Positions 4,013 through 59,030 of a DNA stretch of 64,000 nucleotides are shown here, one piece after another. Origin of the DNA: an uncultured Candidatus Binatia bacterium (GTDB lineage Bacteria; Desulfobacterota; Binatia; UBA9968; JAJDTQ01); contig OZ251459.1 in assembly GCA_965242525.1 (NCBI GenBank), positions 1,184,001 to 1,248,000 on the forward strand, given 5' to 3'. The position numbers and the translations under genes are program-made. Within the stretch, counting starts at the first letter, position 1, and every line of letters begins with the position of its first letter. The notes under the pieces are model-generated. The model saw only the letters and a program-made list of their open reading frames with translations, was not told the origin of the DNA and did no database searches.

Positions 4013-4978
4013 ATGTTGGCGAGCCCCATCAAGGGAATCATCGGAGCGGCGCTGACCCCGTTCACGGACGACGGGAAGGTGGACTACGACGCCCTGGGAC
4101 GGGAGATCGAGTTCCTGGTGGCGGACTGCGACGCAATATCCGTGGCCGCGGTGGAAGCGTCGGAATACACGGTCCTCTCCCTCCAGGAGCGCAAGGATGT
4201 CATGCGGCGCGCCACCGAGGTGGTCAACAAGCGCGTCCCCGTCATCCTCGGGGCCTCCAGCCACTCCATCGACACCGTACTGGACCTGGCGGACCACGCG
4301 GCCGCGGTGGGGGGGGACCTCATCCAGGTGCTCATGCCCATCCGTCCGTGGGGCGGACAGCCGACCATCGCCGACCTGGTGCAGTTCTTCACCGAAGTGG
4401 CGTCGGTCAGCCCGCTGCCCATCGTGGCCTACCACAACCCCGGCCCGGGCGCGGACCCGCCGCTGGATGCGTTCGTGCGCCTGAGCGAGCTCCACAAGGT
4501 GGACTACTTCAAGGAGAGCTCCCGCGACATCACCAAGATCACGCGCCTCATCGAGCAGATCCAGCTCGCCGGAAAGGCCAACTACTTCACCACCATGCAG
4601 CCGTTGCTGACGACCCTGACCATGGGCGGGGCAGGCGCCACCATGCCCCCTCCGGGCACGCGCATCGGCGCGCGGGTGGTGCGCGCGTTCCGGGAAGGGG
4701 ACATGGACAAGGCGCGCTACTGGCAACGCTGCTTCACCCTCTTTCCGGGAAAGTGGGGCGCCTACGGGTTGCCGCCGATCATGAAGTCCGCGTTGAAGCA
4801 CTTCGGGGTCGATATCGGCGACCCGTCCCGCCCCTATGCCCCGGTGAGTCCCCGGGACCACGCCCAGATCGGGCAGTTCTTGGGCCAGATCGGCATCCTG
4901 GGCGACGGGGAACCGGACGAGACCGCTTTCGACCGGGCCTCGGTCCAGCTCTCGCAGGACGACACCTTCCTGCGCTAG
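4013..4978 (+). CDS. Dihydrodipicolinate synthase (DapA/NAL)-family aldolase/dehydratase, not canonical DapA
   Basis: LTPFTDDGKVDY, AYHNP, Schiff-base FKESS; GxTGE motif replaced by AVEASE. Confidence 0.85.
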   Translation: MLASPIKGIIGAALTPFTDDGKVDYDALGREIEFLVADCDAISVAAVEASEYTVLSLQERKDVMRRATEVVNKRVPVILGASSHSIDTVLDLADHAAAVGGDLIQVLMPIRPWGGQPTIADLVQFFTEVASVSPLPIVAYHNPGPGADPPLDAFVRLSELHKVDYFKESSRDITKITRLIEQIQLAGKANYFTTMQPLLTTLTMGGAGATMPPPGTRIGARVVRAFREGDMDKARYWQRCFTLFPGKWGAYGLPPIMKSALKHFGVDIGDPSRPYAPVSPRDHAQIGQFLGQIGILGDGEPDETAFDRASVQLSQDDTFLR

Positions 4979-4983
4979 GTCCC

Positions 4984-5190
4984 ATGTCCGGCGGGCTGTT
5001 CACCTGGGTCGCGGAGCAGGTCAAGGCAGGCACCGACTTCCTGGTGCTGCTGCTGGTCCGCGGCACCTCCCGTTTCGAGTCCGAGTTGACCGAGGAAGGG
5101 AGGCAGGAGCAGCGCATGTGGCGGGACCGGCGCATGCGCAGCCTGAAAGGTCTCGCCCTTCGCGCCGGACGGCGGCGCCGGGGAGGTTGA
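4984..5190 (+). CDS. Small hypothetical protein (68 aa)
   Basis: ATG 5 nt after the upstream stop; GC3-rich codons; fills the gap in a co-oriented cluster. Confidence 0.5.
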   Translation: MSGGLFTWVAEQVKAGTDFLVLLLVRGTSRFESELTEEGRQEQRMWRDRRMRSLKGLALRAGRRRRGG

Positions 5191-5233
5191 CGCCGACACG
5201 GCCGCAGGGCGCCCGCGGACACGGGATTCACGG

Positions 5234-6391
5234 ATGCATTACCACAACGGACGGAAGCAGATCGTCGTGCTCGGCGGCGGCAGCGGGGGAGTGGTGGCCG
5301 CCACCAAGCTCGGCCGCGCCCTGGGCGCGGACCACGACGTGACGCTCATCGACCGCCGGGCCGACCACGTGTTCATGCCCGCCTTCCTCTTCCTGATGGT
5401 GGGGCAGCGCCGGCCCGAGGACATCACCCGGAAGCTGAAGCGCCTGGAGAAACGCAACATCCGGGTGCTGCAGGCGGAGATCCTCGGGATCGACCCGGGC
5501 TCCCGGCAGGTCGTACTCGAAAGCACCGCCATCCCCTACGACTACCTCGTGGTCTCCCTGGGCCTGGAGGTGAGGCCCGACCTCCTTCCCGGCTTCGCCG
5601 AAGGCGCCCAGCACGCCTGGGAAATGGACGCCGCCCTGCGTCTCAAGGGGAACCTCGACGTGTTCCGGGAAGGGCGCGTGGCGGTGGGGATACCGCAGGG
5701 CCCGTACCGCTGTCCGCCGGCGCCTTACGAAGCGCAATGGATGCTGGACAGCTACTTCAAGGAACGCAACGTCCGGGACCTGGTGGACCTCCACTACTTC
5801 ACCCGGGAACCCGAGCCGGCCGGCGAGGAGCACATGCCCTCCGTGTGGATGGACGCCCAGAGCAGGAAGCGCCGGGTCACCATCCATTACGACTTCGTGG
5901 CCCAGTCCATCGACCCCGACCGGCAGCGCGTGCTGGGCCTCTACGGCTACGAGATCTCCTACGACCTGCTGCTCATGGTGCCCCCGCACCGGCCGGCCAG
6001 GGTGCTCTACGACTGCGGGCTCGCCGAGACCGAGACCGGCGTGCAGGTGGACTTCGACACACTGGAGACCAAGTGGGAGAACGTCTATGCCATCGGCGAC
6101 TGCGCCAACATGCCCGCCTCCAAGGCGGGCGGCGTGGCGCACCAGGAGGCGGACGTGGTGGCGGACAACCTGGTGGCGGAGATCACCGGGGAAGGGGAGT
6201 TATCGACCCTCCACCTCCACACCATATGACTGCTGTCCTGCGGCGCGGGACGCGCCGCCGCCAACCGGACCACCTATCCCCAGGGTTGGCCGCCCTTCGG
6301 CGCCGCGGATTCGCGCTCGTGGGGTCCCTCCCGGGCCATCTACTGGAGCAAGGTCCTGTTCGAGAAATGGTGGCTATGGCGTTATTTCTGA
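5234..6391 (+). CDS. Sulfide:quinone oxidoreductase (type III/FCSD-like) flavoprotein with predicted selenocysteine U332 (TGA 6227-6229), 385 aa
   Basis: VVLGGGSGG FAD motif, YRC160PPAPYE, VYAIGD, KAGGVAHQEA; read-through of TGA gives TI-U-LLSCGAGRA...YWSKVLFEKWWLWRYF*, the typical C-terminus of this family; SECIS-like hairpin follows the TGA. Confidence 0.85.
6227..6258 (+). promoter_or_regulatory. UGA codon plus candidate bacterial SECIS hairpin
   Basis: Perfect 8-bp stem GCGGCGCG (6240-6247)/CGCGCCGC (6251-6258) with GGA loop; 18 nt separate UGA from the loop, which starts with G. Confidence 0.7.
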
Positions 6392-6448
6392 CAGGGGACG
6401 GGCGGCGCCTCCCCGCGGGGCGCGCCCGCGGTCCATCCTGAGACGGTC

Positions 6449-7498
6449 ATGATCCTGCGCGAGCTCAACGGCGGAAGCTGCAAGACCTACCTGGTGGCGG
6501 ACGAGGGCAGGGGACGCGCGGTGCTCGTGGACCCGCTGTACGCCAACGTGGACCGGTACCTGGCGCTGCTGGGCTACCACCGGCTCACCCTGGACCTGGT
6601 CATCGACACCCATACCCACGCCGACCACCTGAGCGGATGCGCCCAGTTGCGGTTCCTGGTGGGCGCGCCCTTCGCCATGCAGAAATGGGCCCCCAGCCCC
6701 GCGGTGGACCGGCACCTGGAGGACGGCGAGGGTCTCGCCGTGGGGGAGCTGGAGGTGCGCGTGCTCCACACCCCCGGCCATACCCCCGACGGCATGAGCC
6801 TGGTGGTGGCGGGCAACGTGCTCACCGGCGACACCCTCTTCATCGGCGGCTCCGGGCGCACCGACTTCCCCGGAGGGGACGCCGGCGCCCAGTTCGACTC
6901 CATCACCCAAAAGCTGTTCACGCTGCCGGACGAGACCGCGGTCCACCCGGGCCATGACTACCGGGGCGCCGCCGGCTCCACCATCGGCCGGGAAAAGCGC
7001 GCCAACCCCCGCCTGGCCAACCGCACCCGGGAGGACTACGTGGAGCTCATGGACAACCTCCGGCTCGCGCCGCCCCAGAACATCCAGGAGGTCCTCCAGC
7101 CCAACCAGTCGGCCCTGGGAAGCGACCAGGTCAACTTCCCGGACTGGAGCGAGCTCAAGAAGGTGAGGGAAGTGGACGTGGAGGGCCTCGACCTCATGCG
7201 GAGGTCGGACTCGCCGCCGCTGGTGGTGGACGTGCGCGAGCCCGCGGAGTACACGGGGGAGCTCGGCCACCTTCCGGGCAGCGTCCTGATCCCCCTCCGG
7301 GAGCTGATGAACCGCCTCGACGAGATCGAGGGGCACAGGAGCGGCCCGGTGGTGACCGTCTGCCGCGCCGGGATGCGCAGCGCCACGGCCGCGGCCATCC
7401 TCGGCAGGCTCGGCTTCACCGACGTCTCCAACCTGGCGGGGGGGATGCTCGGGTGGCGCCGCGCCGGCCTGCCCGTGGAGCCTCAGCTCGACCCGTGA
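6449..7498 (+). CDS. Persulfide dioxygenase (ETHE1-like MBL fold)-rhodanese fusion
   Basis: DTHTHADH, HTPGHT, GDTLF, GRTDF, PGHDY, NPRL; C-terminal VVDVREPAEY..GHLPG..CRAGMRS rhodanese. Confidence 0.9.
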   Translation: MILRELNGGSCKTYLVADEGRGRAVLVDPLYANVDRYLALLGYHRLTLDLVIDTHTHADHLSGCAQLRFLVGAPFAMQKWAPSPAVDRHLEDGEGLAVGELEVRVLHTPGHTPDGMSLVVAGNVLTGDTLFIGGSGRTDFPGGDAGAQFDSITQKLFTLPDETAVHPGHDYRGAAGSTIGREKRANPRLANRTREDYVELMDNLRLAPPQNIQEVLQPNQSALGSDQVNFPDWSELKKVREVDVEGLDLMRRSDSPPLVVDVREPAEYTGELGHLPGSVLIPLRELMNRLDEIEGHRSGPVVTVCRAGMRSATAAAILGRLGFTDVSNLAGGMLGWRRAGLPVEPQLDP

Positions 7499-7538
7499 CT
7501 TGACGGCTGCCCTGGGACGACCCTCGCGAAATTCCGTC

Positions 7539-7886
7539 ATGCACAAGAAACAACATCGTCCCGACTGGGAGAACACCTGCAACTACTGCCTCTACCTCCA
7601 GTACGCGCCGCGCAGCGCGCGCTCCGGCAACTGCACGCTCCACCGCCAGTGGATCCAGCGGTCCTCCTTCACCACCTGCAGCGACATGAGCGTGCAGCCC
7701 CTGGACGAAGGCATCTACACGCTCACCGCGGCCGCCTACGGCGGCTGGGTCCACCAGCGCCGCCACAAGCGCGTCCGCACCCGTCTGTTCCTGCTGGAGG
7801 GCGGGGCGGCGGACCGCCGCCCCGAAGACCGGAAGAAGGACGACGTCGCCAGGCGCGCCTCGTTCCGAGACAAATACAAAAGTTGA
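7539..7886 (+). CDS. Small hypothetical protein with four Cys (CxxC..C..C), possible Fe-S/Zn binding
   Basis: CNYC-x14-C-x14-C; GC3-rich codons; stop codon lies inside the dif site. Confidence 0.6.
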   Translation: MHKKQHRPDWENTCNYCLYLQYAPRSARSGNCTLHRQWIQRSSFTTCSDMSVQPLDEGIYTLTAAAYGGWVHQRRHKRVRTRLFLLEGGAADRRPEDRKKDDVARRASFRDKYKS

Positions 7887-58942: not shown

Positions 58943-59030
58943 GCGAAAGTGGCGGAATTTGGTAGACGCGCAGGATTCAGGATCCTGTGGGAGCAATCCC
59001 GTGGGGGTTCAATTCCCCCCTTTCGCACCA
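58943..59030 (+). tRNA. tRNA-Leu (anticodon CAG)
   Basis: Acceptor GCGAAAG/CTTTCGC-A-CCA, anticodon stem CAGGA/TCCTG with loop TT-CAG-GA, long variable arm, GGTTCAATT T-loop; TTGACA at 58879 upstream. Confidence 0.96.

Follow-up and report, generated by a model that had tools for sequence, protein, structure and literature searches.

A probable selenocysteine-containing sulfide:quinone oxidoreductase-like flavoprotein in one order of Candidatus Binatia, separate from the known family NF049943

An SQR-like gene with an in-frame TGA

The window analyzed here, i.e. the whole stretch of 64,000 nucleotides (nt) taken from contig OZ251459.1 (positions 1,184,001 to 1,248,000, assembly GCA_965242525.1) of an uncultured Candidatus Binatia bacterium, carries at 5234-6391 on the + strand a gene for a flavoprotein resembling sulfide:quinone oxidoreductases (SQRs), which consists of 385 codons plus a final TGA stop, and in which one internal TGA codon is predicted to be read as selenocysteine (Sec). 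The frame opens with ATG 5234, meets TGA 6227-6229 after 331 codons, and then runs on for 53 sense codons (LLSCGAGRAAAN...FEKWWLWRYF, 6230-6388) to TGA 6389-6391. This layout had been recognized in a preliminary description of the same DNA, together with an intact first redox cysteine, and both held when the frame was re-read: Cys160 is encoded by TGT 5711-5713 (+ strand), in the local sequence YRCPPAPYE that fits the motif [KR]-C-P-x-A-P-x-E. The UGA at 6227-6229 (+ strand), in the context H-T-I-U, would supply residue U332, and the tail behind it (+ strand) encodes the remainder of the U332 strand, two more strands, and an aromatic-rich C-terminal segment (residues 367-384, 6332-6385, + strand, ...YWSKVLFEKWWLWRY) that forms a helix in the AlphaFold model. 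The aromatic C-terminal sequence ...YWSKVLFEKWWLWRYF is given by the original frame only; both alternative frames 3' of the internal TGA read as low-complexity text rich in Arg, Pro and Gly, and the sequence holds no start codon 3' of TGA 6227-6229 for a separate tail peptide.

Conservation across the order

Six-frame searches of related genomes, with the read-through product as query, provided one full-length orthologue per genome, and the column of the internal TGA was inspected in 36 of them, namely the window's gene itself, 22 genes of its genus and 13 that belong to two further families of the order. All 36, at 65-97% identity, hold TGA at the U332 column, with L-H-T-I before it and L-L-x-x-G-A-G-R-A-A-A-N-R-T after it, and the base that follows the UGA is C in 35 of them. 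The true terminator varies among the same genes (TGA 19, TAG 11, TAA 6) while the internal codon is constant. An order-wide search at E <= 1e-80 returned a match in 106 of 123 genomes; each of the 102 match rows that span residue 332 (101 genomes, including four unpublished ones) holds exactly one TGA, with a TAG in addition in one row, and the six match rows that show no stop end short of residue 332. These order-wide numbers count TGA presence in a row, the exact column being confirmed for the 36 orthologues. No Cys form of the gene was found in the 123 genomes of this order, and a phylum-wide sample of 120 genomes gave no orthologue outside the order and just four Cys homologues (39-40% identity), which has little bearing on the origin of the gene.

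The tail evolves as part of the protein. In Nei-Gojobori comparisons between the window gene and 34 orthologues, the tail had a lower nonsynonymous rate (dN) than the body did in 33 of 34 cases, and the ratio of nonsynonymous to synonymous rates (dN/dS) was 0.02-0.23 in the tail and 0.03-0.29 in the body, with synonymous sites near saturation in distant pairs. The tail is under purifying selection. Furthermore, contigs from two other studies (X4 and X9) and from an RNA library (X19) span 6227-6229, with no difference listed there. Whether relatives have Cys or TGA at this position, and whether the TGA might be an assembly error, were both raised in the preliminary description; the answers are TGA in 36/36 orthologues by column and in 102/102 order-wide rows that reach residue 332, and agreement at 6227-6229 in contigs (not reads) from other studies. 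The conserved TGA and the independent contigs together rule out faulty assembly and a nonsense mutation of recent date.

A SECIS-like hairpin after the UGA

Directly 3' of the UGA, within codons C336-A342, lies a hairpin at 6240-6258 (+ strand) that resembles a bacterial selenocysteine insertion sequence (SECIS), with a stem formed by 6240-6247 and 6251-6258 and a GGA loop at 6248-6250. A perfect stem of 8 bp and a G-initiated loop had been described as lying 18 nt after the UGA, and the stem and the loop stand as described; the distance of 18 nt fits the start of the loop, and the stem itself starts 10 nt past the UGA. In bacterial SECIS elements the apical loop begins with G, and in the bSECISearch model it is located approximately 16-37 nt from the UGA. 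The hairpin is also the minimum-energy structure of 6227-6300.

The sequence GGCGC-N-GG-N-C-GCGCC, which encodes G-A-G-R-A, is kept in 36/36 orthologues, and the GG of the loop is invariant at 17-18 nt past the UGA. Pairing is retained in 92.4% of stem cells, and the core 6 bp are paired in all 33 distinct sequences, so that the hairpin is conserved in the relatives where this had been proposed as a check; in a control with the 3' partner slid by 1-3 columns, pairing falls to 18-72%. The third codon positions in the stem are frozen across the 36 orthologues (C in 36/36 for G337; C in 36/36 for R340, always CGC; 33 C and 3 T for A341), while those of the loop codons vary (entropy 1.44 for A338 and 0.98 for G339), and every other four-fold-degenerate tail codon for an invariant residue varies as well, with an entropy of 0.98 or more. 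Frozen synonymous sites in the stem and free ones in the loop are the pattern expected of an RNA stem overlying coding sequence, and, as far as aligned sequences can tell, this indicates RNA-level selection on the hairpin. A Cys-bearing orthologue, P0007, reads C-L-L-A-F-E-P-G-K-A here, with E-P-G-K-A for G-A-G-R-A and codons that are unable to form the stem. The extra Cys336 named in the preliminary description varies among the 36 orthologues (28 Cys, 4 Tyr, 3 Phe and 1 Leu) and is no part of the conserved site.

Selenocysteine machinery in the source genome

The source genome, which is 98.96% complete, contains all four components for which a search had been advised: selA (577 bits), selB (371 bits) and selD (383 bits), all over their curated cut-offs, and a tRNA-Sec (78 bits, cut-off 47) that ARAGORN likewise reports as tRNA-SeC with anticodon TCA. 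The three protein genes form one cluster outside the window (G000:C1:3604834-3609122, loci L009, L010 and L017). selD is itself a selenoprotein gene, with an in-frame TGA in K-A-A-G-U-A-A-K followed by a 9-bp hairpin with a GUC triloop approximately 33 nt past the UGA, comparable to the hairpin of the SQR-like gene. Across the order, selA exceeds its cut-off in 110/123 genomes and in 27/27 genera. The whole-genome search with the tRNA-Sec model also gave a sub-threshold match (34.4 bits) inside the window, at 58943-59030 (+ strand), which is a tRNA-Leu with anticodon CAG and was rejected as tRNA-Sec.

Redox columns, fold and enzyme identity

The gene product matches the Pfam families Pyr_redox_2 and FCSD_central, and among solved structures it is closest in sequence to human SQOR (E = 4e-29) and to flavocytochrome c sulfide dehydrogenases (FCSDs); the Acidianus and Aquifex SQRs align with it over the full length. 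In a 69-row family alignment, the U332 column is filled by Cys in 46 rows, by Sec in 15, and by Asn and Ala in one each; of the six rows with a gap, four are database proteins that are cut exactly there. Every row of that alignment that was displayed has Cys160 within the [KR]-C-P-x-A-P-x-E motif, and its column is one of nine invariant ones in a second alignment (A2, 43 sequences). The phmmer alignment with human SQOR puts C160 opposite the Cys in P-V-K-C-A-G-A-P-Q-E, and U332 opposite the one in Y-T-S-C-P-L-V-T-G-Y. A review (PMC12589024) places Ser378, Cys379 and a Cys201-S-S-S-Cys379 trisulfide in the catalytic core of the human enzyme, so that U332 would be the counterpart of Cys379, with the residue number deduced from the S-C motif. 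The two central proposals of the preliminary description, that the TGA aligns with the second redox Cys and that Cys160 and Sec332 make up the redox pair of an SQR-like protein, are in line with these results: U332 lies opposite the Cys of the S378-C379 motif, its column is Cys in 46/69 rows, both SQR/FCSD redox columns are present, and SQRs are the best matches in sequence and fold.

An AlphaFold2 model built from the 43-sequence alignment has a mean predicted local distance difference test score (pLDDT) of 93.7, and the 10-residue blocks from residue 331 onwards score 93, 90, 74, 95, 97 and 96. U332 sits in the middle of a strand (329-337), which is followed by strands 340-347 and 359-366 and by helix 367-384. 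The top Foldseek matches to this model are the Aquifex aeolicus, human and Acidithiobacillus ferrooxidans SQRs, with a template-modeling score (TMq) of 0.85. Over the solved SQRs compared (A. aeolicus 3hyv; human SQOR 6oi5 and 8dhk; A. ferrooxidans 3t31 and 3sx6; Acidianus ambivalens 3h8l), TMq is 0.83-0.85, and it is 0.72 for 3h8i, the other A. ambivalens entry. These enzymes are 20-25% identical to the window protein, contain both redox Cys columns (Cys201/Cys379 in human; Cys160/Cys356 in A. ferrooxidans, according to the Protein Data Bank titles), and have a C-terminal membrane helix that matches the predicted helix of the window protein; all of them have Cys only, with an all-sulfur trisulfide or polysulfide bridge. 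By analogy with the solved SQRs, the C-terminal helix is presumed to be a membrane and quinone-side anchor, and a membrane-binding helix at the C-terminus is indeed described for human SQOR in PMC12589024.

Cys-type SQR-like homologues at 30-40% identity have the same length and architecture as the window protein and share its P-Y-[KR]-C-P-x-A-P-Y-E and G-x-G-x-C motifs and its terminal helix, whose K-x-x-F-E-x-x-W consensus is common among them; like P0007, they have Cys where the window protein has Sec. The second Cys is followed by Glu in most Cys homologues (C-F-L-E-T-G), and by Ser or Ala in the clade of the window protein (U-L-L-[SA]-x-G). The other known Sec clade of the family, NF049943 (discussed below), is likewise without that Glu (U-[LMI]-V-V-T-G), and its absence after the second redox position may have to do with Sec chemistry or with constraints from the SECIS. 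With this query, a single SQR-like gene was found in the source genome. In the published classification of SQRs into six types, the Caldivirga maquilingensis enzyme is one of the references for type III. According to PMC10205796, type III is the least known of the types, and a few archaea and bacteria have enzymes of this type with demonstrated quinone reduction; the label 'type III' for the window protein comes solely from the name of the nearest NCBIfam model.

A lineage separate from NF049943

The existence of Sec-containing SQRs has been predicted before. A Sec-containing type III SQR family, NCBIfam NF049943, was first predicted in 2025 (PMC12013277) and is listed with the motif HxxU and one Sec in a 2026 review (PMC13188914). 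The earlier remark that no characterized Sec-SQR is known therefore stands with regard to experiment, since no experimental characterization, assay or labeling of any Sec-SQR was found in the literature searched, and does not stand with regard to prediction, since the family is already catalogued. Papers listed for the combination of selenocysteine and sulfide quinone oxidoreductase dealt with human SQOR and selenide and with no Sec-containing SQR, and no literature was found that links Binatia and selenocysteine.

The window protein has much in common with NF049943: Sec occupies the same alignment column (in H-A-T-U there and H-T-I-U here), the first Cys motif is shared, and in both the UGA precedes an 8-bp hairpin whose loop starts with G. 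However, the window gene is outside of this family and represents a separate Sec lineage. Against the NF049943 model it scores 251.7 bits, with a cut-off of 525, where ordinary Cys homologues score 221-248 bits and the members themselves (read-through products from Desulfobaccales and Syntrophobacterales loci) 633-668 bits. It is approximately 34% identical to the NF049943 member P0162, and is shorter (385 residues, vs 411-430). Sec is followed by L-L-x-x-G-A-G-R-A-A-A-N in the window clade and by [LMI]-V-V-T-G-Y-E-K-G in NF049943, whose hairpin, CGAGAAGG-GGUC-CCUUCUCG, differs from that of the window gene in sequence, in having a 4-nt loop, and in spacing. Sec is also patchy in NF049943, with 42 TGA codons, 33 Cys codons and 5 unusable cases among 80 loci reached through the truncated protein P0162, whereas no Cys form was found in the order of the window. 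On the tree of the 69 rows, the two Sec-bearing clades (support 99 and 100) fall on opposite sides of a split with support 100, among many Cys proteins; forcing both clades together costs 91 log-likelihood (lnL) units (approximately unbiased (AU) test, p = 0.009), and the fewest changes between Sec and non-Sec on this tree number six. Given a lineage separate from NF049943, Sec was most likely recruited more than once at this SQR cysteine.

Inside the Sec clade of the window, the distant truncated proteins P0123 (58% identity) and P0141 (47%) end at ...L-H-T-[LI], and the Cys form P0007 (68% identical) and the Asn form P0012 are nested. This suggests that Sec is ancestral to the clade and was later replaced, the direction of change being read from an unrooted tree. 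P0012, a metagenome protein 63% identical to the window protein, has Asn for Sec/Cys (L-H-D-L-N-F-I-S) and a first motif of C-P-P-A-L-Y-E, and may be an inactive or repurposed SQR-like protein. Within NF049943 (loci L056-L135, Desulfobaccales and Syntrophobacterales), several genomes have both a TGA and a Cys paralogue, with one such pair on a single chromosome (L064 and L127) and another on a single contig (L073 and L110). One Cys gene of that family, L100, still carries a hairpin of the Sec-gene kind, which looks like the mark of a recent switch.

Proposed mechanism and alternative explanations

Based on these comparisons, we consider it probable, at roughly 85%, that the window contains a translated Sec codon within a functional SQR-family flavoprotein, and likely, with somewhat less assurance, that the enzyme has sulfide:quinone activity. 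In the proposed mechanism, SelB and Sec-tRNA(Sec) would decode UGA 6227-6229 under the direction of the G+C-rich hairpin, which has its GG-containing loop 18 nt downstream. The product would be a complete 385-residue, membrane-peripheral SQR-like enzyme, dependent on flavin adenine dinucleotide (FAD), in which Sec (U332) replaces the second redox Cys. A product stopped at the UGA would be without the catalytic residue, the last three strands and the anchoring helix, so that read-through would be obligatory for function. Above the flavin, Cys160 and Sec332 could form a redox bridge, as a selenenyl-sulfide or a mixed S/Se trisulfide-type structure, that would accept sulfide, transfer two electrons via FAD to quinone and hand on the sulfane sulfur, which the persulfide dioxygenase-rhodanese fusion protein encoded next to it (6449-7498) would probably take. 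Animal thioredoxin reductase is a related case, being a flavoprotein of the pyridine-nucleotide-disulfide-oxidoreductase superfamily with a Cys/Sec redox pair; its Sec, however, belongs to a C-terminal G-C-U-G extension, which carries electrons outward, and not to a flavin-proximal active-site pair, and its SECIS is of the eukaryotic type, in the 3' untranslated region. We know of no flavoprotein described with Cys-S(-S)-Se-Sec bridge chemistry.

Several points weigh against this interpretation. Selenium incorporation is deduced from sequence, and so are the substrate used, the identity of the quinone acceptor and the bridge chemistry. With regard to the hairpin, compensatory double-sided change occurs in 0/8 stem pairs, the only changes being two wobble-compatible ones from C to U, so that the structure is not proven by compensation; covariation is absent because the stem hardly varies, which is why the entropy of the synonymous sites is the main argument. 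The outermost and the innermost stem pairs are not universal, being unpaired in 8 and 12 of 33 sequences, and the G-x-G-R-A motif is also common among Cys homologues, so that conservation of the hairpin is partly at the protein level. As a single sequence, the fold of 6227-6300 is ordinary for G+C-rich DNA (z = -0.52, with 62/200 shuffles as good), and Rfam, searched at a permissive threshold over 5000-7600, returned no SECIS family and only chance-level microRNA and small RNA matches. The independent sequencing support is made up of contigs, not raw reads, and eight differences in them were not displayed. The tree, which underlies the separation of the two Sec lineages, is unrooted and was made with a quick method without a mixture model, and the groups for the AU test were named after the tree had been seen. 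Finally, in the largest family (f3) the 1.5-kb flanks yielded no dioxygenase-rhodanese gene.

The simplest alternative, that the TGA is a genuine stop, would leave a truncated flavoprotein of 331 residues and a tail of 53 codons decaying after a nonsense mutation, or a pseudogene. Such a reading could draw on the 117 of the 120 best database matches that end at this column, and on the statistically ordinary fold of the single sequence. It is nevertheless very improbable, as the TGA and the in-frame tail persist in 36/36 orthologues down to 65% identity, where synonymous sites are near saturation and the tail has a dN/dS of 0.02-0.23, and the TGA recurs in 102/102 order-wide matches that reach residue 332; moreover, a stop would delete the catalytic column, three strands and the terminal helix of a confidently modeled fold, with no start codon after it for a separate tail peptide. 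A pseudogene was rejected on account of the conserved TGA and the selected tail. It is hardly conceivable that the TGA stems from faulty assembly or sequencing, or that TGA has been reassigned throughout the genome, and only the bare possibility inherent in a single metagenome-derived sequence can be adduced for this: the codon is kept across independent genomes and assemblies, and the SQR-like gene, the next gene downstream and further genes of the window end with TGA as their ordinary stop.

Two further explanations accept read-through or Sec in part. A near-cognate or suppressor tRNA for Trp, Cys or Arg might read the UGA, or the codon might be leaky independently of a SECIS, and it is true that UGA-C, the context in 35/36 orthologues, is a leaky termination context, and that the hairpin shows no compensatory covariation. 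We regard this as improbable, because the codon stands exactly at the redox Cys of the homologues, a typical Sec signature, the source genome has the complete Sec machinery (with selA in 110/123 genomes of the order), the stem-specific freezing of synonymous sites points to a selected RNA structure at the right distance, and a second clade of the family has the same Cys/TGA alternation with its own hairpin. Alternatively, the protein could be a Sec flavoprotein other than an SQR, e.g. an NDH-2-like NADH:quinone reductase, a (per)sulfide/coenzyme A-persulfide or polysulfide reductase, or a selenide enzyme. NDH-2 structures match the model with TMq of approximately 0.75, Ser or Ala takes the place of the Glu that most Cys homologues have after the second Cys (C-F-L-E), and human SQOR is reported to oxidize selenide. 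We still think it unlikely, since both SQR/FCSD redox columns are present, SQRs rank best in sequence and fold, the FCSD_central domain and a sulfur-oxidation gene next door agree with them, and the closest curated model is the SQR model NF049943. NDH-2 enzymes are not known to have the SQR/FCSD Cys pair. NDH-2 ranks below SQR and FCSD by sequence (E of approximately 1e-10, over the N-terminal third only) and by fold (TMq of approximately 0.75 vs 0.85), and was rejected as the identity of the protein.

If the gene is a Sec-SQR, as we favor, the presence of Sec at the same catalytic cysteine in two clades, each with its own hairpin, argues for a real catalytic advantage of Sec in sulfide oxidation. 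A tentative extension, to which we give a little less than even odds, is that Sec was independently recruited at least twice at the flavin-proximal, sulfane-carrying cysteine of SQRs and became fixed in this order, where a mixed Cys-S(-S)-Se-Sec bridge ('selenotrisulfide') might provide superior sulfide detoxification, in kinetic or oxidative terms, to mostly sponge-associated bacteria.

Database annotation and significance

Among the best 120 matches in a collection of 5.8 billion proteins, 115 end at [LI]-H-T-I and two more (L-H-A-I and L-H-V-I) end in the same column by eye; the other three are one Cys form, one Asn form and one frameshifted read. The expectation that standard annotation would truncate the gene was thus well founded, with 117/120 best matches ending at the Sec column. 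The source names of these matches are 'sulfide:quinone oxidoreductase' or 'NAD(P)/FAD-dependent oxidoreductase', with several from 'Candidatus Binatia bacterium' and also 'Deltaproteobacteria bacterium', and the sequencing runs that contain the sequence of the window are mostly labeled sponge metagenome. The whole orthologue group, with 101 genomes of one order and 117/120 of the best metagenome matches, is stored as truncated entries of 329-331 residues, and NF049943, the sole curated Sec-SQR model, scores the group so far under its cut-off that annotation by this model would presumably not rescue it. Because of the truncated entries, a sulfide-oxidation gene would appear as broken in any metabolic reconstruction of these bacteria, which are associated with sponge metagenomes.

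The Sec-SQR idea is already in print as a computational prediction; the gene described here represents a distinct, apparently independent and order-wide lineage beyond the reach of NF049943. The window enzyme and Cys orthologues of the P0007 type constitute a natural Sec/Cys pair for probing the trisulfide-type cofactor of SQRs.

Neighboring genes

At 6449-7498 (+ strand), 57 nt downstream of the SQR-like gene, lies a gene for a metallo-beta-lactamase-fold and rhodanese fusion of the persulfide dioxygenase-sulfurtransferase type (Pfam Lactamase_B and Rhodanese), whose product has bifunc_ST_SDO as its best NCBIfam match, under the cut-off of that model. The two genes adjoin on the same strand in 22/23 loci of the genus, with a displacement of approximately 1.4 kb in the remaining one, and they are adjacent and convergent in 3/5 loci of another family of the order (f2). 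The contig from the RNA library (X19) is 837 nt long and comes from a sponge metatranscriptome; it belongs to a relative approximately 92% identical, corresponds to 5973-6492 of the window, and spans the interior of the SQR-like gene, the TGA, the tail and the start of the dioxygenase-rhodanese gene, with an intergenic stretch of 80 nt vs 50 nt. RNA libraries can contain DNA, and the contig is at most a weak hint at co-transcription.

On the other side of the SQR-like gene, a small conserved open reading frame of 68 aa (MSGGLFTWVAEQ...RRRRGG) is located at 4984-5190 (+ strand), after a gene of the dihydrodipicolinate synthase (DHDPS) family (4013-4978). It matched no Pfam family. By tblastn, it is found in the same place in 34/36 loci, at 42-97% identity, the two misses being loci that are cut on that side, and its tie to the SQR-like gene is one of position only. 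In one database protein, P0119, a peptide similar to this small open reading frame is fused in frame to the SQR.

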